A stretch of 64,000 nt of DNA, taken from positions 128,001 through 192,000 of the forward strand of contig CM000434.1 of assembly GCA_000165345.1 (NCBI GenBank). The letters are read 5' to 3'. The notes beneath the pieces are model-generated. The model made no database searches and had not been told where the DNA came from. It saw nothing but the letters and a program-made list of their open reading frames with translations. The translations under genes were made by a program, and so were the position numbers. Shown piece by piece: positions 484 through 60,550 of the stretch. The first letter of the stretch is position 1. Each line of letters starts with the position of its first letter.

Positions 484-1298
484 TAATTATATAACTTTAA
501 CATTTTATTATTATTATTTTTTATTATAATTATTTTTATTTATTTTTCTTAATTTGATTTATTATTGTCTGCCGCTTACTTGCACTTTCATTAAGAACTT
601 AGAAAAGTTTAAATTTTTTTGTTTAATGATTTTTTTTAATATAATTTTTAAAAAAAAAAATTTTAATAACTTAAATATTACTCAAACAAAATCATTAATT
701 TGCATCAAATTATTCCAATTTATTTAGCATGTTTTCTTTTTGGTTTATTAATTTCACATTATTCCAGTTAATACTCATTTATCCATCTGAGTTATCTAAA
801 AATAATTCCCTTCCCACAATATACTAATATTTAACTCTTTATCATTAACAAAATACAATATTAATGCTATTCATTAAATTTAAAGTATTTTAATCTCATT
901 TTCATTTTTAAACTTATAATGACTATTATTTTTGTCCACATTCTTTACCGCCTTTGCATGCAACATGCATTTATTATGAAAATGCAAACATTTTTTTATA
1001 CCGGTATTTTTATGTGGAAAGTATATTAGTCAAAAAATAACATAAAAAAATAATATTTAGGCTGGTATAATTATTTTTTTAATTAAATATTAGATAAATC
1101 AAAATATTCATAATTTTATTTATTAATAAGGAACGTTTGTAAATGAAATCTCTCAAGTCATAATTAAATGCAGGTATAAATTAAAGAATCTAATACAATA
1201 TATTATACTAATAATCGTATATTTATTAAATTATTTTGAGAAAAAAATTTGGGAATTTTTCAAAAAGTTTTCAATAAAATATAGTTAAAAAAAGAATT

Positions 1299-2939
1299 AT
1301 GAAACAAGATATCAATTATGGAAGGTTAAATAATATTCCTGAAAGTATTTCAAAGAAAAATACAAAAGTAACAACTCCAGTATATGATTATAATTCAAAT
1401 AAATATAGAAGAACAGAGAATATTATAGAAGAAAGTAATAGAGAAATAAACTATTATCCTATTGGATCACAATTAAGAGCAAAAGAATTAGGAAATATTA
1501 ATAAGATAGAAAATAAATACAAGGAAAAAAGACAAAAAAGTATATATAAAGTCCCAATTTCTGTTGAAGTGTGTATTAGATCAGATATTAACTTAATTCA
1601 AAATGAGAGTGATTCAAATGAATCACAGTTAAGCAGAAAATATTTAATACAAAGAATTAAAAAATATTTTTCATTACAAGCAAATGTTGAATTAGGAAAA
1701 GTCGATATTGATCAAATTGGTGATTCATTATTGAGAAAAGTATGTACTGATATAAATCTATCTTTAAACTACCCAATCCAGTCATTTGAAGAAAAATATA
1801 ATAATAATAGCCAATCAAATCCTCATAGTCAAAGAGAGGATAATGAAAATATCCCAATTTACCAAGCCGAATTCAATATATATACTTATCAACTTAATGA
1901 AAAGTCTGAAGAAGAATATTATATGGAAAGTAATACATCAGATGAAAAGAATACAGATCCTCCAATTTGGAAGTATTGGTCACTTCCAAATATAGAATTT
2001 CATGGATTATGGGATGTACTTCACTATGAAAATAATTTAAAGCAACAACTTATAGATTACACATCTACAAGCTTAATTTTAAGTGATTGTCAAATAGATT
2101 TTAATGTAATTAATTGGAATCATTTAATTTTATTGTATGGCTCTCCAGGAACAGGAAAAACTTCCATTTCTAGAGCAATTTCACAAAAAATTGGAATGAG
2201 ATATTGCCATAGGTACAAAAATATATATTTATTGGAAATTAGTGCACATTCACTATTTTCAAAATGGTTTTCAGAAAGTGGAAAAACTGTTGTAAAACTA
2301 TTCTCTAAAATTAAAAGCTTATTGGAAGAACCTGATTCTTTCGTAAATATTGTAATTGATGAAATTGAAAGTATTTCAACTGCAAGAAAACAAAGTTTAG
2401 GAAGAAATGAACCATCTGATAGTATTCGTGTTGTAAATGCATTGCTCACTCAAATTGATGCTTTAAAAAAATACTCAAATACACTAATTATGACAACCAC
2501 TAATATTCCAGATTCAATTGATGAAGCATTTTTAGACAGAGCTGATTTAAAGCTTCATATACCTCTTCCTTCAATCTATACCAGATATACCATTTTACTT
2601 GAATGCATTGAAGAACTCATATTCAAACAAGTCGTTTATTCAAAAAATAGTGATTTTATTAAAATTTTAAGCTTTAAAGAAATAATGAAATATTCAAATC
2701 ATACAGGAAATAATCAAATTGAAAATCCAAATAACTATGATCAACCCCAAATTAATATTTCTAAAAGTCTACTATATATATCAAAAGTTTCCGAGGGTTT
2801 TTCTGGAAGAAATTTAAGAAAGCTTCCATTTGTTTCCTTACTTTCTTCATATCATCATGGTATTCCTCTAGATATTCAAGTTTTTCTCGAAAAAATGAAG
2901 TATATTGTTGATGAAAAACCCGAAATGGTGAAAAGCTAA
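1299..2939 (+). CDS. PCH2: TRIP13/Pch2-family AAA+ ATPase (pachytene checkpoint protein 2 orthologue)
   Basis: Walker A LLYGSPGTGKTS, followed by HSLFSKWFSESGK, IVIDEIESISTARK, EPSDSIRVVNALLTQID, IMTTTNIPDSIDEAFLDRAD and SEGFSGRNLRKLPF. These blocks are near-identical to the conserved blocks of TRIP13/Pch2 as I recall them. ATG start at 1299 and TAA stop. Confidence 0.85.
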   Translation: MKQDINYGRLNNIPESISKKNTKVTTPVYDYNSNKYRRTENIIEESNREINYYPIGSQLRAKELGNINKIENKYKEKRQKSIYKVPISVEVCIRSDINLIQNESDSNESQLSRKYLIQRIKKYFSLQANVELGKVDIDQIGDSLLRKVCTDINLSLNYPIQSFEEKYNNNSQSNPHSQREDNENIPIYQAEFNIYTYQLNEKSEEEYYMESNTSDEKNTDPPIWKYWSLPNIEFHGLWDVLHYENNLKQQLIDYTSTSLILSDCQIDFNVINWNHLILLYGSPGTGKTSISRAISQKIGMRYCHRYKNIYLLEISAHSLFSKWFSESGKTVVKLFSKIKSLLEEPDSFVNIVIDEIESISTARKQSLGRNEPSDSIRVVNALLTQIDALKKYSNTLIMTTTNIPDSIDEAFLDRADLKLHIPLPSIYTRYTILLECIEELIFKQVVYSKNSDFIKILSFKEIMKYSNHTGNNQIENPNNYDQPQINISKSLLYISKVSEGFSGRNLRKLPFVSLLSSYHHGIPLDIQVFLEKMKYIVDEKPEMVKS

Positions 2940-3505
2940 TTTTATTATTATATTTTTATATAAATATAATAATAAATTCACATATTCATTATTCTTCTAC
3001 TTCATTCATGGGAAAACAAATAATTTAATGAAAATCATAAACTAATTCACATTTTTTTATTACATGTTTAAATTCTCAGCCTACCGATTATTTCTCAGCA
3101 TGCTGAATTACACTAAGATCAACATCAGCGCTTCCCGCCTAAATTAATTGTCACAGTTTACCACAATAAATAGTAAAATGGGGTACCGAATAATATAAAA
3201 TAAATAATTGAAGTATAAATAAATATTGGAATATCAATAATTAATGTAATACACTTTTTTTAAACGAATCAAGAGGGTGGACAGGAAGCGGAAAATACAA
3301 TCAATAATATAAATAGACCAAAAGTATTCTAAAAAACTTTTCTGAGTTAAAGAGTTTCAAAATTCTATTATATTTAATAAGGGAAGCTGATAATCGCTTT
3401 AAGCAATAGTTTGATTGGAAATACTATACGGTCACCAATTTTTGAAGATTGGAATTTCTTGATCTGTAAATAGAACAAGTAATAACCTGTAAGTATTTAA
3501 AAAAA

Positions 3506-6481
3506 ATGAGCTCAGAAACAAATAAAATATGGACAGGAGATGAGGTTCGAAGACAATTCGTGAAATACTTTGAGGGATTAGATCATACATTCTACAGATC
3601 TTCACCAGTAATTCCTTTGAATGATCCAACAATACTGTTTATTAATGCTGGAATGAATCAATTTAAGTCCATATTCTTAGGAACTGTTGAACCAAATTCT
3701 GAACTAAGCAAATTGGTTAGAGTTGCAAATTCTCAAAAATGTATTAGAGCTGGTGGGAAACATAACGATTTAGATGATGTAGGTAAAGATGTATATCATC
3801 ATACATTTTTTGAAATGTTAGGATCATGGTCATTTGGAGATTATTTTAAAGAAGAAGCGATTGAATGGGCATTTAAACTTTTGACTCAAGTATATGGAAT
3901 TCCAAAAGATAGATTATATGCAACTTATTTTGGAGGAGATCCTAAATTACCATCATGTCCACCTGATGAAGAGGCCAAAAGAATATGGTTGAAATACTTG
4001 CCAGAAGATAGAATTCTATCTTGCGGTAGCAAAGAAAACTTCTGGGAAATGGCTGATACCGGTCCATGTGGCCCATGTTCTGAAATACATTATGATCGAA
4101 TTGGAGGAAGAGATGCAATATCATTAGTTAATAAGGATGATCCCGACGTTATTGAAATTTGGAATCTTGTATTTATGCAATATTATAGAGAAGTTGATAG
4201 TACATTAACACCTTTACCTAAAAAATGTGTTGATACTGGTATGGGATTAGAAAGATTGGTTTCAATCTTACAAAATAAAACAAGCAATTACGATATTGAT
4301 TTGTTTAAACCCATTTTTGATCAAATTCATCAAGTAATTTCCTCATCTGGAGTACAGATTCCACGTTATTCTGGAAAAGTTGGTGATATTGATGATCCTG
4401 AAATGATTGATATGTCATACAGAGTTATTTCTGACCATATTAGAACTTTAACTATTGCAATTGCAGACGGTTGTATTCCAAGTAATGAAGGAAGAGGATA
4501 CGTTTTAAGAAGAATTCTAAGAAGAGCTATTAGATATGGATCTCAGTATTTAAAGGCTGGATCTAACGGAGAACCTTGGTTTTATAAATTAGTTGACAGT
4601 GTTTCAAATATTATGGGCAATTATTATAAAGAGATACCAGAAAATATTCAAATTATTAAAGAAGTTATTTTAGATGAAGAAAAACAGTTCTCTAAAACAT
4701 TGTTTAAAGGAACTGAAAGATTTAACAAGGTTATTAATAAGTTAAAGTCTTCTCAAAACAATCAGCAAGACCAGAATAAAAAACTATTCCCAGCTAGTGA
4801 AGCTTTCCAATTATATTCTACATATGGATTCCCAATGGACTTAACAGAATTAATGGCTAATGAACAAGGCTTTGATTTTGACCGTCAGGGATTTCAATTA
4901 TGTATGGAAAACCATCATTTAGCTTCAGAAGGTAAAAATAACAAGTCATTTGACGATTTAATTCTCAAACCTGATATTCAAAATAACTTACTTCTAGAAT
5001 TTGGATTAAAAGAAACTGATGATCAATACAAATATCAATCTCAAACTCAAATTAAAGACTTTTACTCTAATTTGATTGCTATTTTTGATGGAAATCAATT
5101 ATTAAACGCTACTGAAATACAAGGTAAAGTTATTGGATTAATTTTTGATAAAACCACATTCTATTCAGAATCTGGAGGACAAGTTGCTGATACTGGTTTT
5201 ATTGATTTTCAATACAATAACAATGATGAAGTCAGTATATTCCAAGTAATTGATTGTAAAAAATTTGGAAATTATGTATTACATATTGGTATATTATTGC
5301 AAGGAAAAATTGAAATTAGTCCAGAATTAAAATCTTTAATGTCTGTTGATTATTCTAGAAGAAATCTCATTAAAAAGAATCATACTGGTACTCATATCTT
5401 AAATTTTGCATTAAGACAAATACTTGGTAGCACATGCGATCAAAGAGGTTCTGTTGTTGACCCTAATAAATTAAGATTTGATTTCTCATCTCAAAAGCCC
5501 TTAACTTTGGATCAAATTGAGGAAATTGAAAAAATGATTAATCAAATTATCCAAGAAAAACAAACAGTTTATTGTCAGACTGTTGAATTATCTATAGCTA
5601 AGCAAATACCCAACATTAGAGCAATCTTTGGTGAAACTTATCCAGATCCTGTACGTGTATTATCTGTAAGTAAATCTGTGGATTCTTTAATTAATTCTCA
5701 AACAGATAATAATGATCAAGAAAAAGTATCTATTGAATTTTGTGGAGGTACCCATGTTGAAAATACTAGTGAAATTATTTCATTTTCTATTATAAGTGAA
5801 GAAGGCATTGCAAAAGGTATTAGAAGAATTGTAGCAGTTACTGATAATCAATCTGAAATTGCTATTGAAAATGCTAAAAGGCTCAAACAAGAATTTAAAA
5901 AACTTGAAGAATTAAATGGCAAGGAACTTGAGACTTTATTAAATTCTTTCAAATCTAAATTAGATGAAACTAAATTATTACCTTTATTATATAGAAGACA
6001 ATTATCTCAAATTATTGAAGAAAATTATAAGAGAGTTATTGCAGATGCTAAAAAGAAACAAAAAGAAAGATTAAATATGGCTAAAGAATTGGCAACAAAA
6101 ATTGGACAAGAATATTCTCAACAGTTATCTTCAAATAATGAATTTCCAGCTTTAATTTTGAACATTAAACAAATTCAAGGAGATTCTAAGTCTATGGATG
6201 TTATCGGACAAGATATTTCAAAGAAATACCCTGAAGCTCCCATTATGCTTTTTACATCTGGAGAATTTAATGATAATGGAGTTTCTGTTATTTCTATTAT
6301 GCCAAAATCTAAATCTGATAAATTATCTTCATCTAACTGGCTTAAATCTACAATTGAGTTATGTAATGGTAAATGTGGAGGAACAGATCTAAGATCTGTT
6401 GGATCTTCAAAGACAGGATCTGAATCAATTGAATCAATGATTCAACTTGCTTTAGACCTTTTAAAGAAAAATGGTATTTAA
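3506..6481 (+). CDS. Alanyl-tRNA synthetase (cytosolic-type AlaRS), 991 aa
   Basis: The N-terminus has PTILFINAGMNQFK, KCIRAGGKHNDLDDVGKDVYHHTFFEMLGSWSFGDYFK and FWEMADTGPCGPCSEIHYD. The editing domain has HTGTHILNFALRQ. The C-Ala region has CGGTHV and GGKCGG. This is the full-length class II AlaRS architecture. Confidence 0.95.
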   Translation: MSSETNKIWTGDEVRRQFVKYFEGLDHTFYRSSPVIPLNDPTILFINAGMNQFKSIFLGTVEPNSELSKLVRVANSQKCIRAGGKHNDLDDVGKDVYHHTFFEMLGSWSFGDYFKEEAIEWAFKLLTQVYGIPKDRLYATYFGGDPKLPSCPPDEEAKRIWLKYLPEDRILSCGSKENFWEMADTGPCGPCSEIHYDRIGGRDAISLVNKDDPDVIEIWNLVFMQYYREVDSTLTPLPKKCVDTGMGLERLVSILQNKTSNYDIDLFKPIFDQIHQVISSSGVQIPRYSGKVGDIDDPEMIDMSYRVISDHIRTLTIAIADGCIPSNEGRGYVLRRILRRAIRYGSQYLKAGSNGEPWFYKLVDSVSNIMGNYYKEIPENIQIIKEVILDEEKQFSKTLFKGTERFNKVINKLKSSQNNQQDQNKKLFPASEAFQLYSTYGFPMDLTELMANEQGFDFDRQGFQLCMENHHLASEGKNNKSFDDLILKPDIQNNLLLEFGLKETDDQYKYQSQTQIKDFYSNLIAIFDGNQLLNATEIQGKVIGLIFDKTTFYSESGGQVADTGFIDFQYNNNDEVSIFQVIDCKKFGNYVLHIGILLQGKIEISPELKSLMSVDYSRRNLIKKNHTGTHILNFALRQILGSTCDQRGSVVDPNKLRFDFSSQKPLTLDQIEEIEKMINQIIQEKQTVYCQTVELSIAKQIPNIRAIFGETYPDPVRVLSVSKSVDSLINSQTDNNDQEKVSIEFCGGTHVENTSEIISFSIISEEGIAKGIRRIVAVTDNQSEIAIENAKRLKQEFKKLEELNGKELETLLNSFKSKLDETKLLPLLYRRQLSQIIEENYKRVIADAKKKQKERLNMAKELATKIGQEYSQQLSSNNEFPALILNIKQIQGDSKSMDVIGQDISKKYPEAPIMLFTSGEFNDNGVSVISIMPKSKSDKLSSSNWLKSTIELCNGKCGGTDLRSVGSSKTGSESIESMIQLALDLLKKNGI

Positions 6482-6981
6482 ATCATATTTTTATATCAAA
6501 TAAGGATCTTTATATAGATAGAGGATTGTAGTTAAAACAAGTAGACTTTTAAAATATCTTTTATTTTAATTCATTCTATTTCTTTTTTTTATAGACAATT
6601 TTACTTTTATTATTATGTTAATTTGAATCCAAAATATAAAACATCTATTCAAGACAATTAGTGGCAAACAAATCCTTTTCTTTTTTATATTCTGAAAAAA
6701 AATCAGTTTTAAAGTATCGAAACAAATTAACATATTAAAAAGATACGAGAATAAAAGAATGGTTATAGCTGCTTAGTCTAATAATTCTATGGCTATTAAA
6801 TATTTGAACTATATTTAATATATTGAATGAATATATACTTCAATTAAATCTAAGATGAAAATAATAAGAAATTATATCACATATTAGACTTTGTCAATAT
6901 ATTATTAATATAGGGACTCTATTCTCACAAATTAAAGAAACAGAGACCATAGAAGAATCATAATAACTTGTTGATTTGAAT

Positions 6982-7401
6982 TTAAACAATAGAAGGAGCA
7001 GCAGCAGAGACCTTTGGCCATAATTCTGCGCATTCCTTACCAACTGGACCAGTAATAGCAGAACCTTTCATTTCTCCCTTTGGATTAACAATTACACCTG
7101 CATTATCCTCAAAGTAAAGGAAGGTACCCTCAGGTCTTCTAAAAGCTTTACGTTGACGTACAATAACAGCTGGCCATACCTTCTTTCTCAATTCTGGTTT
7201 ACCCTTCTTAACAGTTGCCAACACCATATCACCAATAGATGCTGATGGTAGACGGTTTAAGCATGATCCGGTACCTTTAACTGCTATGATGTATAAGTTT
7301 TTACCACCACTATTATCACAACAATTTATAAGAGCACCAACATTCAAACCGAGAGTAATTCTCATCTTAGCACCACCTGCAGCACCTCTTCCTCTCTTCA
7401 T
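6982..7401 (-). CDS. RPL23: 60S ribosomal protein L23 (uL14), 139 aa
   Basis: [43 protein letters not shown]...[57 protein letters not shown] aligns end to end with eukaryotic RPL23. Confidence 0.95.
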
Positions 7402-7583
7402 CTTTTCTAAATATAAACTATATTAATGAAGCTGGAAATAAGTTTTTGATTTAATTAGGATAATCTTAATTTTTTGGGATTATTTTAATCTAATCTCCAA
7501 AGAAATTATTCTAGTTGTTACAAGATTATTAATATTGTTTTATTAATTAAAGAATTGATTAGCGCTGAAAATAACAATATATT

Positions 7584-7609
7584 AATTATTATTATTATTA
7601 TTATTATTA
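7584..7609. repeat. (ATT)n microsatellite in the RPL23/CPSF100 intergenic region
   Basis: A run of about 8 ATT units seen directly in the sequence. Confidence 0.8.
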
Positions 7610-7666
7610 ATATTATCAGTTTAATGCTAATTTGAATTTGTTCTAATATTTATTTTGAGACAATTT

Positions 7667-7676
7667 TTGGGCGCCA
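7667..7676. promoter_or_regulatory. E2F-like site TTGGGCGCCA, about 270 bp upstream of RPL23
   Basis: GC-rich GGCGCC core in an intergenic region that is otherwise more than 80% AT. The same core recurs upstream of many genes in this window. Confidence 0.5.
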
Positions 7677-7919
7677 TTTTTATTTTACAAAAATTTTATT
7701 TTATGATGACAATTATTACTTGTACAAAATTTACTAATTAATTAAATATTTATAATACTTATATTACCATTATTTATTTTTCACAAAATTTCTGAGACAT
7801 TATTTAACCTACTTTTAATTAAATATTAACATATTTGGAAGACGTATGCGTGACGGTACCTATTATTGTGTCTTTTTTGTGAAGACTTTTTTAAGGAAAG
7901 TGGAGGGGGTTAGCATTCA

Positions 7920-7992
7920 TGGTATTTTGACGCCAATTTGGCGGTAATATATTTGCAAATGGCGGTAACTTGGAACTTTAACAAATGTCAGC
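7920..7992. promoter_or_regulatory. Three spaced copies of GGCGGTAA / GCGGTAA (tttggcggtaatat ... aatggcggtaactt ... gtcagcggtaaaa) upstream of CPSF100
   Basis: Direct repeat of an 8-mer at roughly 30-bp spacing in the intergenic region. It is preceded by the G-rich stretch gtggagggggttagc. Confidence 0.4.
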
Positions 7993-8636
7993 GGTAAAAA
8001 ATTATATATTGTATGTAAATATATTATTTCTAAAATTAATAAAAATATTTTGAATATAAATAATTTATCATAAATTGTTTAAATTTAGAAATAGGCTTAT
8101 TCACTTAAAAAATTGTAATCTATAATATACACATATAATTCTTTTCAAATAATTGAGCAAAAATTGATTATTTATAGTTCTTACAATAATATATTTATAT
8201 CTTCAAAAATTGCACATTATTACACACTTTTTTAAATAAAATATAATTTTGACAAAAAGTAATAATGAAAAGGCGGGCTACAGTCGAATTTTAATTAATT
8301 GTGATCATGTAAAAAAAAAAATAATAAAATAGTAAATAAATATTCAAATATACTTTCATTACTATTTAGTAATTATTTGTATATTTCAATAAAATAAAAG
8401 AAGCAATCCAAGTAATTTACTAAGTTAAAGATTGTTTATTTAAAAGATCAGTAACTATTGATATTTTAGATAAATAATAATTAAAGGTAAAAAGGTATCG
8501 ATATTTTAAATCAATTATTATTTATTTATTACAAATATATACATATATATTTGTTTAAATATATTTTAGTAATAATTATTATTTATAATTATTACTTATG
8601 ACCGATTTTTATTGAGTATTTATTATTGTTTATCTT

Positions 8637-11600
8637 ATGATAAATATATCTTTAAAACCAATATGTAGTGGCGTAATTAAAGGTAACGCCCTACGTATTA
8701 ATAATTGTCTAATTTGGTTTGATTTTGGTATAGAAAATGAGTCTAAATTTGATAGATCAGCTTTATTAGATTTGGAATTACCACATTTAATATTACTAAC
8801 AAATTTTCCAAAAACATTTATTGGTGGTTTACCAATTTTACATAAATTATTAACAGAAAAAGGGATATCATGTAAAATTCCTGTAATTTGTACTGAACCA
8901 ATATTTAGATTTGGAAATAATATATTGTGTGATATTATACAAAGTATGAGTATTAGAGATCAAGAAAGAGGATTACAATATACTTGTGATAAGGAAGATA
9001 ATAAAGGATTTAAACAATTACCCTTCACAAATGAAGATATTGAAGGAATCCTTGGTGAAAATGTTTGTAGGTTAAGATATTATCAATCATTTAATATTCA
9101 ACTTTTACATAATGATAATAATATGAATGATGATAATTCTTCTTTAACAAGTATTAATTTAAAAGCATTACCAAGTGGTTTTGAACTTGGTTCTACTATT
9201 TGGAGTATGACAATTAATTCAATTTCTGATAGTTGGGAATTCGTTTATGTAAGTGAGGTAGCTTCTCATCCATATTGGCATGTTACTCCATCAGATTTGG
9301 GTAGATTGAATAAACCAGATTTATTAATGCTTGGAGTTAATACTAGTAATATATTAAAAATACCAAATAATTTATCTTTTTCAATGAGCTCAGATTTTGG
9401 TAATGATTTCAAGAAATGCAATAATCGTTTAATTTCTATTAAGAAATTTGTGAATACTATTTTAGATTGTATTAAAAAGAATAAAACAGGTACAATATTA
9501 ATACCAATGCAATTGGATAGTTTATTGCTAGAAATATTATGTTATTTGGATGCTATTTGGAATAAAGGAAAGATTTTATATCCAATTTTTGTTACTTCAC
9601 CATTAATTAAATCATTTTTATTATCTGTTAAAACTTTGATTGAATGGATGAGTTTAGAAATAAGATCAGAATTTTGTGATTCAAGATTTAATCCATTCCA
9701 TGATTTAAAGAATATTATACTTGAAACAAATCTTAAGAATATAAGAAGTGAAAATTTATCAAAAGTACCAAAAGTTATATTTGCTTTTCCTGAATCTATG
9801 GATTATGGTTATTCCAGAGAACTATTTACTGAATTAGCAACAAATGAAAATAATACCATTATGTTTGTTAGGGAGCCAAAAGAAAACACATTTGCTCATT
9901 ATATTTGGAATAAAGAACTTGAATTACGTAGATCTGATCAATCTTGTATACATTCTTTAATTCACTCTGACAACCATAGTATTCAAATTCCTACAAATAT
10001 TCTTGAGAATAATCATGAATTATCATACTCCATTGAACTTCCCATGATTAGATTTACACCTTATAGACAAGATGAGCTTTATGCAATGTACCTTTCACAT
10101 AAAGAGTCTAATAATGCTGGTAATAATTTAAACCAAAATTCTGACGATATTAACAAAAAGCTGGATGACCAAGGTGTTAATTCTGCAAATTTAGAATTAG
10201 ATAATGGTGATATTAAGTTGGAAGATTGTGATATTAATAAAAAAGATGTTGAGATGAATATTGAGAATGAATCCACTAGTATATATAATGATGATAATCA
10301 TTGTAATAATGATAATAATAATACTGATATTGTTTGTAATAACAATGAGTTGAATAATAAAACATCATATTCTTGTATCTTGTTATCTTCAAATAATAAC
10401 AATTCTGATAATTGTGTTAAAAATGATGATATGAGTAATATAAATAATAATGGTATTGACTATGTTAATGATCAAAATGTTAGTTCTTCTATTCAAACGC
10501 AAATCGAGTTTTTAAGATCAAAATTAGTTCCTGTAAATGTTGATGATGAGCTTTTGAATTTAAATTCACTTTCATCGTCTTCTTCAAGTTCGTCTTCAAC
10601 ATCATCATCATCTTCTTCTTCTTCTTCTTCTTCTTCATCTTCTTCTTCATCTTCTTCATCAAATTTCCATATCTCTGGTCAAAATTCTTCAACAAAACAA
10701 ACAAAGGACGATTATGGATGCTTATTAGATGAACAAACATTGCAATCTATCATTGATTCTTGGAAAGATGCATCTAGTGACCTTGACATTTCATCATATA
10801 ATTTGAAATTAAATGACGAAGTTGTAAAAGATAATAAGTTGAAATTAGATTCAGTTGGTAATGATTCATCGATCATCTCGAGCTTTGATAACTCTAATAA
10901 TAATGATGATAGTAATAATAACAAAATTCGTATTTTGGCCCCGAAAAGAAGAAGAAATGTTGATAGAATATCAAATATCAAAGACGATGTATTACCAGAA
11001 ATAAAGGAAGGAGAAGTAACTCTTGATTCCAATGGAAATTCTGATCCAATTTTGAATAGAAACACAAAACTTGGTGGAAGATTGTCAAGCATGCTAAGCA
11101 TTGACAGTAACAATACAGCTTTTGCAAATAATATTCCAGAATGGAGAATTCATTTTAGACAAATTTTGGGTGGTACTGAACCTTTTAGAATTACTCATGA
11201 AATGAGCAAGATTGAAGTTAGATCAAGAGTAATATTAACTGATGGTTTGGAGCTTAAGAATGAAATATCATCATTATTACCATTATTGAATTGTTCAAAT
11301 CCAAAAACAATTATATTAGTTTCTGATTGTAAGGACTCTAAAGAGGAGAATATTTTAAAATATTATAAATCTATATTAATGTCACTTCCAAATTCTCCAA
11401 AGAATATTGTTTCTTCGAAAATTGATGATAACAATTTGATTGAATTTACTTTGGATGAAAGTGTTGAAATTGTTTCATTTGATAACTCAGTGTGGGATGA
11501 AGTTTCAACAGGAGGTTTTCAGCTTGTACAAAATGGTTCAGCTCCTTCAGCTGCTTTACAAGAGTCTTCATTAAATAACAATAGAAAAAACGAAATTTCA

Positions 11601-12227
11601 AGTTATTACGCTTTTGCAAGAGTTGACAATATTTCGGCAAAGCTTATTAAGGATGAAGTAGTTTTTGTTAAGAATAATAAATTGGAAAATAATTCAGAAC
11701 TTAATCCCAACGAAGAAAAAGTGACTGATAATTGTGATTCATTAAATAATAATATTATGGATGAATACAAAGATCCTCAGAATGAATCATTAATTAACAA
11801 GAATCAACAATCTCCATACAATGTTTTAAATAACCTTATTAATGTAATTAAGAAAAGAGGTAATAATAATTCTTCAAAGAAATTCCATAAGGAAATATTA
11901 CTTTCAAAATCACGTGGTATACGCCATATAGTTTCTGAAATGAGAAAACAAAACCCTCTTCCAATTATTAATATATCCCCAAGTGGAGGAATTGTTTCCG
12001 TCAATAATGCTATAGCGTTTTCTTCAAATCATTTAAATAAAGATTTTGAAATTTCTCAAATTAATAACCAAGACCAAAGCAATTCTTCTTTTAAAGTTCA
12101 AAAGGGCGACCATTTAACAAATAATTCCAATATAGATGATATGAATATTTGGAATTTACATGCAAAACTTCATCCATATTATTATATTGCCAGAGGAATA
12201 CTACGTAATCAGTTTGCTATTTTATAA
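8637..12227 (+). CDS. CPSF2: Cleavage and polyadenylation specificity factor 100 kDa subunit (CPSF2), a non-catalytic metallo-beta-lactamase/beta-CASP protein with large low-complexity insertions
   Basis: The N-terminus ISLKPICSGVIKGNALRINNCLIWFDFGIE corresponds to CPSF2 IKLTTLSGVQEESALCYLL...FLLDCGWDE. INLKALPSGFELGSTIWSM corresponds to LSITPLPAGHMIGGTIWKI. The C-terminus YYIARGILRNQFAIL corresponds to FYRIRDLLYEQYAIV. The catalytic His motif of CPSF73 is absent, as expected for CPSF100. The protein contains a 35-residue poly-Ser run and N/D-rich inserts. Confidence 0.75.
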   Translation: MINISLKPICSGVIKGNALRINNCLIWFDFGIENESKFDRSALLDLELPHLILLTNFPKTFIGGLPILHKLLTEKGISCKIPVICTEPIFRFGNNILCDIIQSMSIRDQERGLQYTCDKEDNKGFKQLPFTNEDIEGILGENVCRLRYYQSFNIQLLHNDNNMNDDNSSLTSINLKALPSGFELGSTIWSMTINSISDSWEFVYVSEVASHPYWHVTPSDLGRLNKPDLLMLGVNTSNILKIPNNLSFSMSSDFGNDFKKCNNRLISIKKFVNTILDCIKKNKTGTILIPMQLDSLLLEILCYLDAIWNKGKILYPIFVTSPLIKSFLLSVKTLIEWMSLEIRSEFCDSRFNPFHDLKNIILETNLKNIRSENLSKVPKVIFAFPESMDYGYSRELFTELATNENNTIMFVREPKENTFAHYIWNKELELRRSDQSCIHSLIHSDNHSIQIPTNILENNHELSYSIELPMIRFTPYRQDELYAMYLSHKESNNAGNNLNQNSDDINKKLDDQGVNSANLELDNGDIKLEDCDINKKDVEMNIENESTSIYNDDNHCNNDNNNTDIVCNNNELNNKTSYSCILLSSNNNNSDNCVKNDDMSNINNNGIDYVNDQNVSSSIQTQIEFLRSKLVPVNVDDELLNLNSLSSSSSSSSSTSSSSSSSSSSSSSSSSSSSSNFHISGQNSSTKQTKDDYGCLLDEQTLQSIIDSWKDASSDLDISSYNLKLNDEVVKDNKLKLDSVGNDSSIISSFDNSNNNDDSNNNKIRILAPKRRRNVDRISNIKDDVLPEIKEGEVTLDSNGNSDPILNRNTKLGGRLSSMLSIDSNNTAFANNIPEWRIHFRQILGGTEPFRITHEMSKIEVRSRVILTDGLELKNEISSLLPLLNCSNPKTIILVSDCKDSKEENILKYYKSILMSLPNSPKNIVSSKIDDNNLIEFTLDESVEIVSFDNSVWDEVSTGGFQLVQNGSAPSAALQESSLNNNRKNEISSYYAFARVDNISAKLIKDEVVFVKNNKLENNSELNPNEEKVTDNCDSLNNNIMDEYKDPQNESLINKNQQSPYNVLNNLINVIKKRGNNNSSKKFHKEILLSKSRGIRHIVSEMRKQNPLPIINISPSGGIVSVNNAIAFSSNHLNKDFEISQINNQDQSNSSFKVQKGDHLTNNSNIDDMNIWNLHAKLHPYYYIARGILRNQFAIL
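10569..10660 (+). repeat. Imperfect (TCT/TCA/TCG)n tract encoding about 35 consecutive Ser inside CPSF100
   Basis: Trinucleotide tract seen directly. It lies in frame within the CDS. Confidence 0.85.
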
Positions 12228-12787
12228 GTTATTTAAAATTAGCTTAAATTTTAAGAAACTTCTTCTTTACTAGATTTATTATATTTTTTTAATTAATTAA
12301 GTTAAATTATATACGTGTCATTGTTTTTTTTTGTCCACATAAAATATATTGACTCAAACTTGTATACCGGTATTTGCATGCATTATTGCGCAATTACCGA
12401 ATGCAATTTTTTTGAAATTAATTTCTTGTCCACTTAACGCGGACGATAATAAAAATAATTATATAAAAAAAGTCAAAAAGTAAAATAAAATTTATTAAAT
12501 TAAAAAAATAATAAATTTATGTATAAGATATAATTAATGAAAGAGAACAATGATATATTTAAAGGAAAGAATATAGATGGGAAGATTTTGGTTCCATTGT
12601 CATTCCATAATTCAAAGAAAAGCAGGTAAGTAATTGGTTAATCTAAATTGAATAATATAATAAATAATTAATATACTTATATAATATATATATTTTTAGT
12701 TCACCAATATTAATATCTCAAGATTTATCAGAAAAGTTATTTAAAAAGTATGGCAATCAAGAAAATTATTTTGAAATTATTAGCCAT

Positions 12788-15700
12788 TTGAATCCAGAGT
12801 GTGATGTTATTTATTTTCAGTTGAATAATAGAATTGTGACGGAAAATTTTAATATTGGAGGATTATCAGTTTTAGACTATGTGGTTAGAAGTTCAGGTAT
12901 ACCATTAATTAGACAAGAAGTAGAAATAAGAAAAGTTATATCAAAGAAAGATATTGAATTAACAATAGTTGAATTATCTTTGCCAGAAATACATATATCA
13001 CCAAGAGATTTATGGTATTATGAGAAATCTTTAGTTGGTAAAATACTTTATAATGGAATTTCACCACAAATTACTTATGAAATTAATCAATATTTACCAA
13101 TAAGTATTACAAGAATGGGAAATGAAAATGAAGAAAATAATATGAATAAAAAAATAATCATTTCAGGATTAGTTACAGATGATACTACATTCTTTATAAG
13201 ACCAAAGTCTGTAAGAATTATATTTATTGTGATTATTTCAAAAGAATTTTTTTGTTTTTCCAGTAATGGTTTTCCATGGTGGAGAGGAATTATTTCATTT
13301 TTCAAAGAATATTTAACATCAAATAAACAATCTATAGAGCATCATTATATTACAATACTTTTAGCATGGAAAGTTAAAGAAGAAACAAAAACTATGGATT
13401 ATTATCAAGTTTTTTGGGAGGGAGTTCTTTCTCATATTACATTAAGTCAAACAAGTATTAATAAATTTGTTGAGAAATTAAGAAATATAATGATTTCATT
13501 TCAAAAAAATCAGAATCTAATTAAGAGTTTAGTATCATATTGTGAATCAAATATTTTGGAATCTATTAATCTTGCAGTAACACAATTACAAAATGATTTA
13601 ATTGATGGATCTATTGTATGGACAGGAAGAAATATTAAAGTACTTAGTTCAGGTCCTCCAATTATTATAAGTGACTTAGAAAATTATCAAAGATTACTAA
13701 ATTTATCAAAAATCACAGAAGTTAGATTTCTAAAGACATCAATTACTTGTGATTTTATATCTTTCTCTGAGCTTAATTGGTATCATTTTTTAACTATATA
13801 TATAGTAAAAATAAAAAATAGTCTTTATCAAGAAACACTTAAAGAAATTAAATTAAAGATTCCAATAACAATTTCATATTACAAGATTAAAAATATATTT
13901 TATAATGATTATAATGGCAATTTCAACTTATCATCTACAATTACCTTGTTAGATGAATATATAGATGATAAGTTTTATTTTAAACAAAGTAAAATTCAAA
14001 TTGAAGATAATGAAAATGAAGATGATTGTGAAAGTGATATTGATTTAATTTTAAGTGGTAAAGATTTAGTGGTGAGAAATATATCAAGCTTTGTAAATAA
14101 AAAAGAAAGTTTTGAATATAGTTTGAGTGACTTTGATAATTTTTCTAAAGATCTTTCTTCAAATAATAAGCCTAAAGATTATCAGTATATAAATGAAATT
14201 GAATTATTAAGTCATTCACTTGGAACTTTATTATTGCCTTTAACTACAAGTAACTTAAGTAAAATTGATATTGAGAAAAATATTTCTAATTCAAAGGATT
14301 TAATATTAAGTGAGATTCAAAGAACATCAAATTGGACATTAACTCCCAGAAAAGAGTTGTTTCTGGCATATATTTGGAAAAATTATCGAATAAATAATCC
14401 AAAACTGATTAATTGTGATTTTATCGATTATTCAACATTTACTGATAAATCTGAAAATAAAGATATAAATATTGAGATTTTAAGATTAATATATTACGAA
14501 TTGATTGTACACAGAATGTCAATGTCTTTTCAAATTTCAACTTTCAAATCAAATAGTATTATAAGTCATTATAATTCAGAAAATATACAAATGTTAAAGT
14601 GCTATAATAGCTTAAGTAATAATATTATTCCAAATTATAATTGCATTCACCAATTAATTTTACTTAAAGAAGATAATAATATTTTAGTTGAAGTTATTGA
14701 TGCAATTATACAAGATAATAGTAATAACAGTACTAGCGCTGGAATTGGTATCAGTACAAGTACAAATACAAATATTAATACTGGTAATTGTACTAAAAAT
14801 GATAATATGAGCTCAAATTTGAATTCAAATATTATTAATAATAGCTCAAATAATAATGATAATGGTAATAACAAAAATGAAACATTTTCTATTGAAGTAA
14901 ATCAAGAAAATAATTCAGTACCATTTTATACATTTCTACCAAAATCTATTATTAATTCACAAGATATTAATGAAAATGAATTAAAAAATATAATAATTAA
15001 TTACAAATATGAATATTTTCTTTATAGAAGTAAAAACCATGACTACAATGATATAATTTCTGAAAAGCCGTTAAAAGGTAAATATATTAAATACTATACA
15101 ATTTTTAATAATTTNNCTAATGTTAACTTTAGTACAGNGGANGANATNNNNGTCTNGCAANGNGANATTCCTTTTATTAATGAACTCATAAATGAATCAT
15201 TTAATGAATTACTTAATTACAACTTTGACAAGAATAATTTGGATTATTATTATCTTTTAACATCATATATATCTGGCTTATCAATCAGTTACATTCACTT
15301 TGCATTTATTCCTTTTGTTAAAACTAATAATACTAGTACAAATATTATTAATTTCTACACCAATAAATCTGAACAAAATAAAAATGTTACTAATGATATT
15401 TTAAATTTTGATCAAGATAATAAATTTGAAATTTTAGATTGTTATTCAAATTATTACAAAGATTGTTGTTTGGCAAGTATTCTTAATAATTGGATTAAAA
15501 TTAATTCAGTAAATAATGATCAATTAAAGGAAATGGTTGATTATAATATTGGTAAGATTGATGATGAATGTTTAAATATGAAAAATTTAAAGAAGATTTC
15601 AGAAATTAATATCAAAAGTTTAATCAAATCATTAGAATCATTCTTTTTTAAAAATGCACCTTCAAATATTGATCATTCATTTAATATTGAAATTATGAAT

Positions 15701-18318: not shown

Positions 18319-18321
18319 TAA

Positions 18322-19211
<890 letters not shown>

Positions 19212-47073: not shown

Positions 47074-47163
47074 TTCCCGCCCAATTCCATTTAATATATT
47101 ATCAAATATACATTTTTGAATGGAATTCATTCATGCAGGCATTATATACATGTTATTGGCGCC
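47074..47163. promoter_or_regulatory. E2F-like TTCCCGCC (47074-47081) and TTGGCGCC (47156-47163), with a CATGCAGGC between them, located 3' of both flanking convergent genes
   Basis: These are promoter-type motifs in a region where no annotated gene starts. Confidence 0.35.
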
Positions 47164-47178
47164 ATTTGAAATTTGTAT

Positions 47179-48549
47179 TTAAGATCTTACCATTAATCTT
47201 CTAGAGTTTGGATTTTGGATTCTAGCTGATTCAGCAACCTCTGTAGTAGTGGTAGTGGTAGTAGTGGTAGTTGTAGTTGTGGTAGTTGTAGTTGTGGTAG
47301 TTGTAGTTGTAGTAGTTGTGGTAGTTGTGGTTGTAGTAGTAGTTGATGTAGAAGTTGATGATGTAGAAGTTGTTGATGTAGAAGTTGTAGGTACTGGAAT
47401 AGGTGGACCAAACTTATTTGTAAAGTTATTTAAAGCCAAAGCATCTCCCTTGTTAAAGATTCCAAAAGCTGGGAAAAATGAATTGTTATCTTTATCAATA
47501 CCAACAAGTCTATAATCAAATGAAGAAGGTAATGGTTCCAAAGGAGTGCCAGAAATAAATTCTGGTAATACATTATCATAAGTAACCACAGCAAAGAATA
47601 AAACTGTAATTAATCCTGTTGGATTAACATTTGGTTTTAATGATGGATAACTCAAACCTCTACCAAGTAAAATTAATCCACCATCTGGTTGACGGCCAAC
47701 AGCTTTTACAATAGCACAAACATTCACATGCTCAGATTTACCAAAGAATGGACCATTAGTATAAGTCTCTGCTCTACATACTTCATTCTTATCTGTCATA
47801 TAATCCAAAATAAGTGATTGAGAATTATCTTGATGTTCAGCAGTTGCTAAACTACAATGTTGTGGCAAACTATTAAGAGACATAATAGAAGGAACAACAA
47901 ATTTACCCTTAACCATATTATATCCAAATACAACTTCATCTTGAGCCCTATTACATGCACCTTTTGCAGCAAATTTACCTCCCCAAAATTTCTCAATACC
48001 TCTCATATCAATATCTCTTGTATCTGTTAATAAATCCAACATTGTACCATACATCATACCAGTTGGAATTACATCAGGTTGTAAACCAACTTCCAAAATA
48101 CACATTAAATCACGACTATTTTGTATTAAATCATCAACACTCGTTATATTGTAAATTGTACCTTTTTCACAATGACCATCTCTTGTAAAAGGAAGAGTTA
48201 AATAATTTCTATTTTCAACTCTTGGTCCTCCAAATATTGGAATACCTGGAATATTAAATGATTTAGATTCAACTCTTTGATCATTAGAATCTGATAAACT
48301 ATTTACATTTTGTGAAAATCTATCTCCTCTATTCATTAATGGATCAACAACTCTTTTTGAAAGTAATTGTGCTCTATTTCTAAATGAATCCATATTCCCA
48401 CCAGAATTTGGTTGAAATGAAGAGCCTTGTTGTGGTAATGAAGAAGAAATTCCTGTTGGAATACAACTAACTTTACCAAAATCCAAAATTAAACCCAAAA
48501 CAAAGTAAAATATAGATACCTTAAATATATTATTACTAATATTCATCAT
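47179..48549 (-). CDS. Secreted mucin-like protein: signal peptide, a roughly 370-aa Cys-containing globular domain, and a C-terminal run of about 50 Thr (and some Ser) residues
   Basis: N-terminal MMNISNNIFKVSIFYFVLGLILDF. Cys residues are spaced through the middle of the protein. The C-terminus is TTSTSTTSTSSTSTSTTTTT...T followed by EVAESARIQNPNSRRLMVRS. Confidence 0.6.
   Translation of the reverse strand: MMNISNNIFKVSIFYFVLGLILDFGKVSCIPTGISSSLPQQGSSFQPNSGGNMDSFRNRAQLLSKRVVDPLMNRGDRFSQNVNSLSDSNDQRVESKSFNIPGIPIFGGPRVENRNYLTLPFTRDGHCEKGTIYNITSVDDLIQNSRDLMCILEVGLQPDVIPTGMMYGTMLDLLTDTRDIDMRGIEKFWGGKFAAKGACNRAQDEVVFGYNMVKGKFVVPSIMSLNSLPQHCSLATAEHQDNSQSLILDYMTDKNEVCRAETYTNGPFFGKSEHVNVCAIVKAVGRQPDGGLILLGRGLSYPSLKPNVNPTGLITVLFFAVVTYDNVLPEFISGTPLEPLPSSFDYRLVGIDKDNNSFFPAFGIFNKGDALALNNFTNKFGPPIPVPTTSTSTTSTSSTSTSTTTTTTTTTTTTTTTTTTTTTTTTTTTTTTTTTTEVAESARIQNPNSRRLMVRS
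47243..47392 (-). repeat. Imperfect tandem array of 18-21-nt units (GTAGTTGTAGTTGTGGTA...) encoding the poly-Thr tract
   Basis: Direct tandem repeats are visible on the + strand. A tract of this type is a likely source of length polymorphism between isolates. Confidence 0.8.
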
Positions 48550-48858
48550 CTTAATATTAATAGTTTTTTAAATAATTTATTCTTAATCCTTTTTTTTTTT
48601 CTCCTTTTTACTTTACTTTCTCACTTTAAATTATTTCCCAATTTATTGTCAAATTTGACAATTTTCTAATTTATTCCAATCTTATTATCTTCTCATTTTT
48701 ATATATAACTTTTTCATCCCAATTATAATAAATTAATATCATTATTTAATATTTTCTCTATTTCGAGATTAATCCTCTAATTACACTCCTTAATTTTTTT
48801 TAAAATAAGAAATAATAATAATTTTACCTCTAATTCTATTTATTTACTATTTCCACAT

Positions 48859-48979
48859 GTGCATGCGCATGCACCATTCCTCCCCCCCCCTTCACCTCTT
48901 CCCGCATTTCTAATATTTATATTACGTGTTCTTTAAATTCTTTTTTAAAAACAAATGCATGCATGCATTTATGTGGACA
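48859..48979. promoter_or_regulatory. Divergent promoter (mucin-like gene / P5A-ATPase) with GTGCATGCGCATGCAC, a C-rich CCTCCCCCCCCC run, TTACGTGT, AATGCATGCATGCATTT and TGTGGACA
   Basis: The densest GCATGC cluster in the window. Confidence 0.55.
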
Positions 48980-49689
48980 ATAATTCATTTTACTATTAAT
49001 AAAGTACTAGGATTTTAGATATAATGTAATTTATTTAAAAAAATAATAATAATAAAGAAATAAAAATTAAAAAAAATTATTAATCCATAAATTAATCAAT
49101 ACAATAATGTATTATATTTTCTCTTTAGCTATTTCTTTAATCTTTCCATGTTTTTCTTTTTCAAATTTTGTTTAATTAAGTAAATAATACTTTTTATTAA
49201 AAGAAAAAAAAAAATTATGTTTGTAAACACGTGAGGGTAATGAAATAAATCAAATATTCTATAAAAAGGCGGGTCGATACCCAAATATTATTTATGATCA
49301 TAAAGAAAAAGAAAAAAAAAGGGGGTAAAAAAAAGATTATTTAATTTAATTGACCAATCATTAATAATAAAATTTTTTTTCATGAAATAATTGATAAAAC
49401 TTTTTATGAAATAAATATATTCTTCATTTATACAAATATATATAGATATATATATTTGTATATAAATATATATATTTAATCTTGAATATTAGCTATAATA
49501 AATCAATTACATTTCTTCAAATTCCGTGTAATAATAGATTTCAATAGGTGAAATTATTAAATTGGAAAGAATATTATTTATATTTAGAATTTAAAATATT
49601 ATCTTCTTTTTTTTTAAGAGAAAGATAAAAATAAAGGGGAAAAGAAAAGGAAAGAAAGAAAGAAAGTAAAGAAATCAAGTTAAAAAAAA

Positions 49690-60010: not shown

Positions 60011-60447
60011 ACTTTTTTCCTTTTAACTTTAAATTACAGAGATTCTTGTCTTACCCATCCACAAAATCTTAATATTCTAGACTTTTAATCTCTGTTACTT
60101 TAATAATTTTTGTATATTCCTGTTAAATATATTTTGCAGTGTATTTTTCAATTTTCCTTCCCCGCTTTTTTATTTTACATGTACTTTCTGTGGGGTACTC
60201 ACCTTTAAAGCTTAAATAAACCCGGCAAAATAACATGTCAATATTTACATTGAAAAAGAACACTTCATTTATAAAATATTATCCACTTTATAGAGAAATT
60301 TTTTTTACTTAGTTTGAAATTCCCTCTCAATTAAATTATTAATTAATACCATTAAACTTCTAAACCTAAAATATTTCTTTACTTATGTTTTAATACATTT
60401 ATTTTTTTAACATTAATTTTTTTCTCCCTATAATGCAATATTTTTTT

Positions 60448-60550
60448 TGTCCACATAAATATTAACACCGGTATCAAAAATAATGCATGTGGAAAATAAT
60501 TTTTGTTGACAGCATGCACAAAATTTATGCAGATGCATGCAATACACGTG
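60448..60550. promoter_or_regulatory. Divergent promoter (condensin / bZIP) module: TGTCCACA ... CACCGGTAT ... ATGCATGTGGAAA ... GCATGCAC ... GATGCATGCAAT ... ACACGTG
   Basis: The same motif set and order as the modules at 22574-22679 and 12332-12382. Confidence 0.55.

Follow-up and report, generated by a model that had tools for sequence, protein, structure and literature searches.

A probable female-stage promoter module, largely separate from E2F sites, in the 5' intergenic regions of Cryptosporidium parvum chromosome 6

Introduction

Cryptosporidium passes through sex in each infection to form oocysts. According to a review of 2026, no trigger of female commitment has been identified, and the published analysis of female-gene promoters yielded one motif, TGCATGYR, that is, TGCATG[T/C][G/A], and one suspected AP2 factor (PMC11078545). 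Here, we describe a stretch of 64,000 nt of Cryptosporidium parvum chromosome 6 (positions 128,001 to 192,000 of CM000434.1, assembly GCA_000165345.1; hereafter, the window), in whose 5' intergenic regions four short elements recur together: W (ATGTGGA[C/A]A), P (ATACCGGTAT, with an ACCGGT core), A (TGCATGCA/TGCATG) and B (ACGTGT). We conclude that this composite is probably a cis-regulatory module of the female (macrogamont) to oocyst stages.

Several of the described elements that come close to it are from C. parvum itself. AP2_1 (TGCATGCA) and E2F are established motifs of this organism (Oberstaller 2013/2014), and the original prediction, a note made from the sequence of the window alone, rightly called GCATGC and E2F known Cryptosporidium upstream motifs, both being documented in the literature. 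TGCATGCA is bound by the AP2 domains of cgd2_3490 and AP2-F (cgd4_1110), both of them female-expressed (cgd1_3520 and others are also named in the literature). The module resembles AP2_1 and the macrogamont motif in carrying one to three TGCATGCA/TGCATG sites and in its link to female genes; in M6, one of the six modules of Table 1, the string TGCATGTG(GA) at 60484-60495 is the published macrogamont motif running into W. The published macrogamont work, however, has a single motif: the partners ATGTGGA[C/A]A, ATACCGGTAT and ACGTGT, the pairing and the conservation are not described there.

A second precedent is the 'unknown motif' A[T/A]G[T/A]GGA.A, which Oberstaller et al. (2013, PMC3734150) reported in front of Class II COWP genes, where AP2_1-like and CCAAT-like motifs accompany it. 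This motif is W: it fits all 11 ATGTGGAMA sites of the window and keeps the same motif company, TTGCGCAAT in M2 included. The report, however, covers five genes, gives no P partner, orientation, position or conservation, and has as its stage a 72 h peak only. Beyond this W-like mention, we found no literature giving W, P or B strings as Cryptosporidium motifs, and ATACCGGTAT, ACGTGT and GGTAYCGATA are in neither the 25-motif table of 2013 nor the table of a 2025 review. P, B and the composite architecture appear to be unreported (the chromosome 6 motif analysis of Bankier et al. 2003 and the protein-binding microarray (PBM) logos of Oberstaller 2014 lie outside this comparison).

Results

Over-represented words in the 5' intergenic regions

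The window comprises 14.6 kb of intergenic and 49.4 kb of coding DNA, with 11.9 kb of upstream space. An unbiased scan of the intergenic DNA for 6-8-mers, with an order-2 Markov model as the background, is headed (low-complexity words aside) by TGCATGCA, GGCGGG/GGCGCCA, ATACCGGT, (A)TGTGGAC(A) and ACGTGT, with p values of 1 × 10−7 to 1 × 10−22; those of GGCGGG and GGCGCC are 7 × 10−9 and 1 × 10−6, respectively. The scan also yields the CGGTACC and GGTATCGA families, which the original prediction had not named, whereas all the strings that it quoted, 12 E2F-type cores included, were recovered at their positions. Counts in intergenic and coding DNA are, respectively, 5 and 1 for TGTGGACA, 10 and 1 for ACCGGTA, 6 and 0 for TGCATGCA, 9 and 0 for GGCGGG, 3 and 0 for TTACGTGT, and 5 and 2 for GGCGCC. 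ATGTGGAMA occurs 11 times in the window (1.38 expected) and ATACCGGTAT, at up to one mismatch, seven times (0.59 expected; three exact copies and four with one mismatch); neither count is reached by any of 100 dinucleotide shuffles. The ACGTGT core is strong and the exact 8-mer TWACGTGT is weak, because the latter occurs just three times against 0.49 expected, which 2 of 100 shuffles reach. Moreover, the motifs are restricted to spacers that hold a 5' gene end, and four of the five 3'-3' spacers are without any.

In spacers of ~80% AT, any word that contains GC is conspicuous, and the pattern might be put down to chance, to a composition artefact of such rare words, or to copies of a dispersed repeat. 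The tests run have already refuted this explanation, to which we assign a negligible probability: no shuffle reaches the W or P counts, the Markov p values descend to 1 × 10−22, conservation of the elements at orthologous positions extends to C. muris, and the pattern is reproduced in independent macrogamont promoters (see below). Within the window, the words singled out by the original prediction are commoner in intergenic DNA than in coding DNA, and commoner than in shuffles as far as W and P are concerned. A dispersed repeat or mobile element was rejected in its own right: the repeat families found in the window are of low complexity only, and the modules are not among them.

The sole coding copy of ATGTGGACA (37572-37580) lies ~100 nt into the open reading frame (ORF) of female-specific cgd6_670; it is probably coincidental, because the N-terminus looks like a genuine signal peptide.

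Two promoter vocabularies

Clustering was assessed by permutation within the upstream space of the window, using a distance of 70 nt. P lies within this distance of W at six of the nine W sites (p = 1 × 10−4), and TGCATG at eight of the nine (p = 1.5 × 10−4); similarly, six of the seven P sites are accompanied by A (p = 1.5 × 10−4) and five of the seven B sites by TGCATG (p = 2 × 10−3). The suggestion that TGTGGACA with ACCGGTA, and ACGTGT with GCATGC, are additional co-occurring elements is borne out by this permutation and by 62 independent promoters (see below). E2F sites, which the original prediction had included in the same module, do not belong there: all 14 are more than 100 nt away from W. 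The W/P/A/B cluster is present in 6 of the 15 upstream-containing regions, plus two in partial form, and E2F-type cores are present in 9 of the 15, such that the motifs occupy 'nearly every intergenic region', as had been claimed, only if both classes are pooled and not for either class singly. The 5' intergenic regions of the window use two largely separate cis-regulatory vocabularies, E2F and the module.

The module spans 80-130 bp, and its order and spacing are flexible: W and P are usually 0-30 nt apart, there are one to three A sites, and the B site takes the form of an ACGT core, (T/A)(T/C)ACGTGT. In M1, M5 and M6, W is present as a back-to-back inverted pair that brackets other elements (Table 1).

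Table 1. Modules, partial elements and E2F-type cores of the window
Feature	Position	Elements	Context
M1	932..1020	W- 933-941; TGCATGCA 955-962; CATGCA 964-969; ATACCGGTAT 998-1007; W+ 1012-1020	between cgd6_540 (-) and cgd6_550 Pch2/TRIP13 (+)
M2	12311..12443	ATACGTGT 12311-12318; W- 12332-12340; ATACCGGTAT 12364-12373; TGCATGCA 12375-12382; TTGCGCAA 12386-12393; TTGTCCAC 12426-12433; AACGCGGA 12436-12443	upstream of IML1 (cgd6_590); begins ~85 nt past CPSF2 stop
M3	22576..22676	TGCATG 22576; ATGTGGACA 22623-22631 abutting ATACCGGTAT 22631-22640; TTACGTGT 22659-22666; TGCATG 22671	midway between CK2-alpha (cgd6_620, -) and SFT2 (cgd6_630, +)
M4	37948..38024	TGCATG 37948; ATACCGGTCT 37967-37976; TGCATGCA 37976-37983; AAGGCGCCAA 38001-38010 (E2F); TTACGTGG 38017-38024	between female-specific cgd6_670 (-) and cgd6_680 (+)
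M5	48850..48980	W- 48850-48858; GCATGCGCATGC 48861-48872; TTACGTGT 48922-48929; TGCATGCATGCA 48956-48967; W+ 48971-48979	300-430 nt upstream of female-specific cgd6_710 (-)
M6	60447..60551	W- 60448-60456; ACACCGGTAT 60465-60474; TGCATGTGGAAA 60484-60495; GCATGC 60512-60517; TGCATGCA 60534-60541; ACACGTGT 60544-60551	upstream of female-specific bZIP gene cgd6_740 (+)
Partial element	27206..27225	E2F-like CGCGCGGGAA abutting ATACCGGTACC	84 nt past cgd6_650 stop; 536 nt upstream of cgd6_640
Partial cluster	16501..16560	CATGCA, ACCGGT, CATGCA, CCCGCC	upstream of cgd6_600; stretch includes N's
CGGTACC tandem	20567..20581	near-palindrome ATACGGTACCCGGTACCGTAT	247 nt upstream of ATP synthase alpha (cgd6_610, 'Asexual Specific')
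E2F-type cores (GGCGGG, CCCGCC, GGCGCC)	3132..49273	starts 3134, 7670, 8272, 16555, 22112, 22126, 23081, 26902, 38003, 44796, 44889, 47076, 47158, 49268	

Most E2F cores lie 220-430 nt 5' of an ATG, in front of RPL23, CPSF2, AlaRS, CK2, SFT2, cgd6_640, the RNR genes and P5-ATPase. The E2F consensus, TTTSSCGC, TGGCGCCA or GGCGGGAA, is matched by all 12 cores cited in the original prediction and by two further ones. In sequence and in distance from the ATG, these 14 cores fit the E2F/DP sites of Cryptosporidium (TTTGGCGGGAA, TGGCGCCA), its known dominant promoter motif; they differ in standing outside the module, segregated from W, and in not being positionally conserved to C. felis. In the arrangement that we propose, E2F/DP sites, at times with GGTAYCGATA, would stand in front of proliferative, housekeeping or asexual-stage genes (RNR, RPL23, CPSF2, CK2 and SFT2).

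An orphan element, AGGTA[C/T]CGATA (core TATCGATA), lies beside E2F sites at 8494-8503, 44820-44829, 49268-49281 and 29967-30008, and sits in the RNR divergent, RPL23/CPSF2 and P5-ATPase (as GGCGGGTCGATACC) promoters; in C. ubiquitum and C. felis, GGTACCGATA stands at the orthologous sites (L011 9884, L014 5376 and L015 5766). The arrangement is like the pairing of the DNA replication-related element with E2F at replication genes of Drosophila. Pairing of E2F with GGTAYCG as a second composite was rejected at p = 0.15 in the window, though the individual sites are conserved. Additionally, the RPL23/CPSF2 divergent spacer contains, at 7928-7996, three GGCGGTAA-type repeats (TTGACGCCAATTTGGCGGTAA, AATGGCGGTAAC and GTCAGCGGTAAAA), which may be variant E2F sites. 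At 47060-47165, TGACGTGT and the E2F cores TTCCCGCC (47074) and TTGGCGCC (47156) lie in a 3'-3' spacer, 20-120 nt past the cgd6_710 stop, partly conserved in C. ubiquitum and with no ORF >53 aa; these sites may form the promoter of an antisense or non-coding transcript.

Conservation in other Cryptosporidium species

Orthologous loci were compared in C. hominis, C. meleagridis, chipmunk genotype I, C. ubiquitum, C. felis, C. xiaoi and C. muris. At M1, M2 and M6, stretches of identity interrupt spacers that can otherwise hardly be aligned, and the elements of each keep their order as far as C. felis. The M1 block is conserved in the chipmunk genotype, C. ubiquitum and C. felis, whereas its flanks are not; the M2 elements form an identical set, in identical order, in the same three; and M6 is conserved in C. 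meleagridis, C. ubiquitum and C. felis. From M3, C. felis keeps TTACGTGTAA.TGCATG. In three-way alignments of C. parvum, C. ubiquitum and C. felis, for which the identity across all spacers is 25.5%, P is 96% identical (p = 2 × 10−4), A 51% (p = 2 × 10−4) and W 46% (p = 0.015); E2F (19% against a background of 25%) and GGTAYCG are not above background. By an alignment-free count, the orthologous C. felis spacer retains W in 4 of 6 cases, P in 3 of 5 and B in 4 of 5, against a background of 13-27%. Moreover, the same k-mers lead the enrichment lists of the C. ubiquitum and C. felis spacers.

On the deepest branch sampled, that of C. muris, the spacer between NCAPD3 and the bZIP gene reads CATGCA..CCGGTAT..AGTGGACATTCATACCGGTATCTACATGCACTACACGTGT, 45-120 nt upstream of the bZIP ATG, and the bZIP promoter keeps W, P, A and B in order (GTGGACATTCATACCGGTATCTACATGCACTACACGTGT). 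M6 is assigned to the bZIP gene because the C. muris elements lie at this distance from its start codon; this promoter also shows the W-P pairing to be ancient. In C. muris, retention is limited to the bZIP promoter, and around SFT2 neither C. xiaoi nor C. muris, with a spacer of ~5.8 kb each, gave a deep-conservation signal. On these comparisons, the blocks of the module qualify as phylogenetic footprints that persist as far as C. felis, apparently under purifying selection. Their reading as promoter elements, already implied by the original prediction, is supported by their 5' intergenic confinement, by the footprints, by their position 95-175 nt upstream of start sites in independent promoters, and by the documented motifs among them.

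The inverted W pairs of M1, M5 and M6 suggest another object of selection, namely, small structured RNAs, or hairpins and cruciforms, formed through inverted W/TGCATGCA arms. Indeed, three of the six module folds have z-scores of -2.6 to -3.7, with the inverted W arms pairing; the other three, however, lie at -0.3 to -1.7, the distance between the arms varies (39, 79 and 121 nt), conservation proceeds motif by motif in spacers rich in indels, and 62 other promoters also have the elements one at a time and in both orders. Because nothing but invariant motifs enters the stems, these cannot show covariation. No credible Rfam family (E-value scan) and no tRNA (ARAGORN) was found, and promoters of non-coding RNAs or tRNAs were rejected as candidates; an RNA hairpin was likewise rejected, the fold z-scores being inconsistent and explained by palindromic motifs and inverted W arms. 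A structural role is, in our judgement, exceedingly unlikely.

Link to the female stage

Stage labels were taken from supplementary file S3 of Hasan et al. 2024 (PMC11078545). Among the window genes, S3 has only cgd6_670, cgd6_710 (female log2 fold change 11.4) and cgd6_740 as 'Female specific', and cgd6_610 and cgd6_620 as 'Asexual Specific'; the remaining genes are not listed. The module lies upstream in all three female-listed regions, as against 3 of the 12 other upstream regions of the window (Fisher p = 0.044). Additionally, cgd6_550 (Pch2), beside M1, falls in expression cluster 124, with COWP1 and cgd7_5140.

A further set of promoters, mostly from other chromosomes, was provided by the macrogamont genes (S6 of PMC11078545; 65 genes, with 5' untranslated regions (UTRs) trimmed), from which 63 promoters, or 21.9 kb, were analysed. 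The most enriched word is TGCATGCA (39 versus 1.2 expected), and directly after it rank ACCGGTAT (16 versus 0.19; p = 9 × 10−26) and CATGTGGA (17 versus 0.24; p = 5 × 10−26); TGTGGACA occurs 12 times (0.19 expected) and ACGTGT 11 times (1.7 expected; p = 2 × 10−6). Of 62 promoters, 11 contain both W and P (W in 17, P in 19; Fisher p = 7 × 10−4), with a median gap of 25 nt. W, for which 33 sites give the consensus YATGTGGA[C/T]AA, is oriented predominantly in the sense direction (18 versus 5, p = 0.011), and the 17 full-length promoters place A, W and P 95-175 nt 5' of the annotated start site. The architecture seen in the window is nearly exactly repeated at COWP8 (cgd6_200), cgd6_3280, cgd6_4880, cgd7_5130 (ATGTGGACACCGGTAT), cgd7_5050 and cgd8_920. 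W is present upstream of COWP8 and of crystalloid protein genes in S6, and in five of seven reportedly AP2-F-dependent genes as against 12 of 55 other macrogamont genes (p = 0.014); it may mark a late-female, crystalloid and oocyst-wall regulon.

The position of P in these promoters also bears on a quite different role for CCGGTA/GGTACC-type elements, that of a boundary or roadblock, which would end upstream transcription and insulate neighbours rather than activate. They may be likened to the yeast Reb1 site, which we take to be TTACCCGG; in tandem gene pairs, some copies lie shortly behind a stop codon, with 84 nt between the cgd6_650 stop and 27215-27225 and ~85 nt between the CPSF2 stop and M2, and there are GTACCCGG-like strings at 20567-20581 and 45302-45313. 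P, however, sits at a defined 150-175 nt upstream of macrogamont start sites, together with W and A, most P-type copies are in divergent 5'-5' spacers, where a terminator is needless, and such copies are entirely missing from 3'-3' spacers. We hold a boundary function to be very unlikely.

Several points weigh against tying the module to the female stage. Three of the six modules, M1, M2 and M3, flank genes that S3 does not list as female, and the density of W plus P in their regions (~0.55 per kb) is only about one-half of the value for the macrogamont set, such that the module is perhaps not restricted to females. The main weakness is that the macrogamont enrichment is relative to a Markov background and not to non-female promoters; moreover, the macrogamont promoter sequences run to ~390 nt only, 17 of them being full-length. 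B is not above background in the three-way alignments, the W-P pair of M3 is absent from the orthologous spacer of C. felis, and C. ubiquitum keeps M5, which C. felis and C. muris both lack. Lastly, neither W nor P coincides with a PBM motif published for an AP2 domain of C. parvum.

The unlisted neighbours of M1-M3, a W/P density there within ~two-fold of that of the macrogamont set, the choice of background, and the conservation of P, which is the strongest of all (96%), as of a structural promoter element, would each suit W and P as general promoter or upstream-activating elements, for instance sites for a nucleosome-clearing general regulatory factor, that are independent of stage. Yet W and P are never found with the E2F-only promoters of asexual or proliferative genes (RNR, RPL23, AlaRS, ATP synthase alpha and CK2), and the segregation of all 14 E2F sites from W points the same way. 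Oberstaller 2013 has the W-like motif with Class II COWP genes only, not among the 25 motifs from 200 expression clusters (PMC3734150), published peaks of transposase-accessible chromatin (ATAC) from sporozoites show E2F and no AP2-type motifs, and W is commoner in the AP2-F-dependent genes, as described above. A general, stage-independent role is possible, but we consider it unlikely; the best reading of the composite is as a female (macrogamont) to oocyst-stage cis-regulatory module, and we regard this reading as probable.

Further elements and annotation of the window

M3 lies midway in a 1.5 kb spacer, ~450 nt from the E2F sites serving either neighbour and with no nearby ORF >43 aa, an arrangement suggestive of a transcript missing from the annotation or of an alternative start site for the female stage. 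For the partial element next to cgd6_650, the orthologous place in C. felis retains CGGGCGCGG...TACGGGTACC. The CGGTACC tandem, conserved in C. felis as AAATAAAATACCCGGTACCC, is an element of the GGTACC/GTAC type, distinct from ATACCGGTAT.

Upstream of cgd6_710, where the W/A/B module is not kept in C. felis, three short blocks (48640-48770, 90-210 nt upstream of the ATG) are kept in both C. ubiquitum and C. felis: the palindrome TGTCAAATTTGACA, TTTAT.TATAACTTTTTCAT.CCAATTA, and CTCTATTTCGAGA. A role in the core promoter or the 5' UTR is conceivable. In the spacer between NCAPD3 and the bZIP gene, a second conserved block (60172-60230; L016 19990-20045) lies nearer to NCAPD3 and reads TTTACATGTACTTTCTGTGGGGTACTCAC, that is, TACATGTA plus a G-box, and AACCCGGCAAA; C. 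muris has the G-box too (TTGTGGGGTTCCAC), and the block is probably the NCAPD3 promoter.

By its locus names, the window is the part of C. parvum chromosome 6 with gene order cgd6_540 to cgd6_750. The original prediction of a Cryptosporidium-like organism was right: C. parvum proteins are exact matches for eight of the ten ORF products checked, and the DNA is ~96.5% identical to C. hominis chromosome 6. The G + C content is 24.5%, and the ORFs are long, mostly without introns and densely packed. With assignments backed by Pfam, the genes are cgd6_540 (GCN2-like kinase, -), cgd6_550 (Pch2/TRIP13, +), cgd6_560 (AlaRS), cgd6_570 (RPL23), cgd6_580 (CPSF2), cgd6_590 (IML1), cgd6_600, cgd6_610 (ATP synthase alpha), cgd6_620 (CK2-alpha, -), cgd6_630 (SFT2, +), cgd6_640, cgd6_650 (kinase), cgd6_660 (aspartyl protease), cgd6_670 (C11 peptidase/EGF, -), cgd6_680 (C2/CEP76-like, +), cgd6_690 and cgd6_700 (RNR, ribonucleotide reductase, small subunits), cgd6_710 (secreted protein, -), cgd6_720 (P5-ATPase), cgd6_730 (NCAPD3), cgd6_740 (bZIP, +) and cgd6_750 (leucine-rich repeat protein).

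Going by its orthologues, IML1 truly starts ~300 nt past the CPSF2 stop. In P5-ATPase (cgd6_720), an in-frame TAA at 50794-50796 makes two ORFs where orthologues read through, and the window contains 69 N's (15115-17127, 29610-29636, 46540-46546 and 56127-56130), some of which interrupt the 534-aa gene cgd6_600; this looks like an older or lower-quality assembly here. ATP synthase alpha is represented by two ORFs (18322-19125 and 19278-20321), consistent with one intron, as 630-aa orthologue models imply, and for the 339-aa ORF the true gene model is longer.

Discussion

We propose that the module is a promoter-proximal cluster of putative transcription-factor sites, lying ~100-170 nt upstream of the transcription start, that would most likely drive female (macrogamont) to oocyst expression. 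W and P would be read by orphan factors acting together with female-expressed AP2s, whereas B and the C/EBP-like TTGCGCAAT of M2 are candidate bZIP sites, B being read by a bZIP protein that is possibly the female-specific cgd6_740. The bZIP-type ACGT-core instances in the window are ATACGTGT, TTACGTGT (three copies), TGACGTGT, ACACGTGT and TTACGTGG. We take the B strings to belong to the bZIP classes of G-box, abscisic acid-responsive element, Z-box (ATACGTGT) and hybrid (TGACGTGT), and the palindrome of C/EBP to be ATTGCGCAAT, M2 having TTGCGCAAT.

In the cgd6_740 protein, the basic region (RNRQSAQKHRDKQK, N-x7-R) is canonical and the leucine zipper is of the heptad type; neither shows any change across the species from C. 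parvum to C. muris. The match of this protein to Pfam bZIP_2 is just under the cut-off (21.7 versus 22.3 bits), and comparison of its sequence with solved structures gave noise matches only. Since cgd6_740 is female-specific and itself carries the module, autoregulation is conceivable.

Outside the genus, P has lookalikes in oomycete promoter palindromes, namely, M94 TACCGGTA and M93 TACATGTA of Phytophthora infestans (PMC3597505) and ATACCGGTAT of Plasmopara halstedii (streme-5; PMC10031896). The identity with P extends over 8-10 nt, and in both lineages the gene sets are of developmental stages and the factor is an orphan; oomycetes are stramenopiles, however, and distant from the alveolate Cryptosporidium, and the resemblance may be convergent. 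In the macrogamont set, TACATGTA occurs six times (0.61 expected) and TACCGGTA seven times (0.09 expected), whereas other TAC-NN-GTA variants are not enriched, save for a weak TACACGTA signal. A bolder scheme would have ATACCGGTAT and its sister TACATGTA as the site of a non-AP2 developmental factor common to alveolates and oomycetes, an ancient stage-switch regulator of the stramenopile-alveolate-rhizarian group; it would cooperate with the W factor and with cgd6_740, which would bind ACGTGT, also in its own promoter, conserved across the genus, and by this positive autoregulatory loop would help to lock female fate. We consider this combination quite unlikely.

In Plasmodium, the female elements are TGTRNNYACA (PFG/AP2-FG complex) and GCTCA (PMC10945693), functional analogues in that they are short, lie upstream of female gametocyte genes and are combined with an AP2 factor. 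W (TGT-GG-ACA) superficially shares the TGT...ACA frame of the former, but with a spacing of 2 nt rather than 4 nt and an asymmetric core, ATGTGGA. A relation of W to the ten-base PFG element was rejected by Markov simulations: TGTRNNYACA occurs once in the macrogamont promoters (1.3 expected) and not at all in the upstream regions of the window, and GCTCA is not enriched.

To the single published motif of female-gene promoters, these results add the orphan elements ATGTGGA[C/A]A and ATACCGGTAT, which are the next most enriched in macrogamont promoters and physically paired with each other. Their position and orientation are typical of real binding sites, and they have been retained since the split from C. 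muris. We rate the finding as moderately interesting: it brings to light two orphan elements, both deeply conserved, in promoters that would drive Cryptosporidium female development. The separation of E2F-type from female-type promoters helps to predict stage expression from sequence, and the compact modules (~100 bp) are candidate female-specific promoter cassettes for transgenesis. None of the AP2 domains assayed so far binds W or P; regulators still to be assigned are thus implied, and these could be isolated by DNA-affinity methods or DNA affinity purification sequencing (DAP-seq) with ATACCGGTAT and CATGTGGACAA probes, or by yeast one-hybrid screens.

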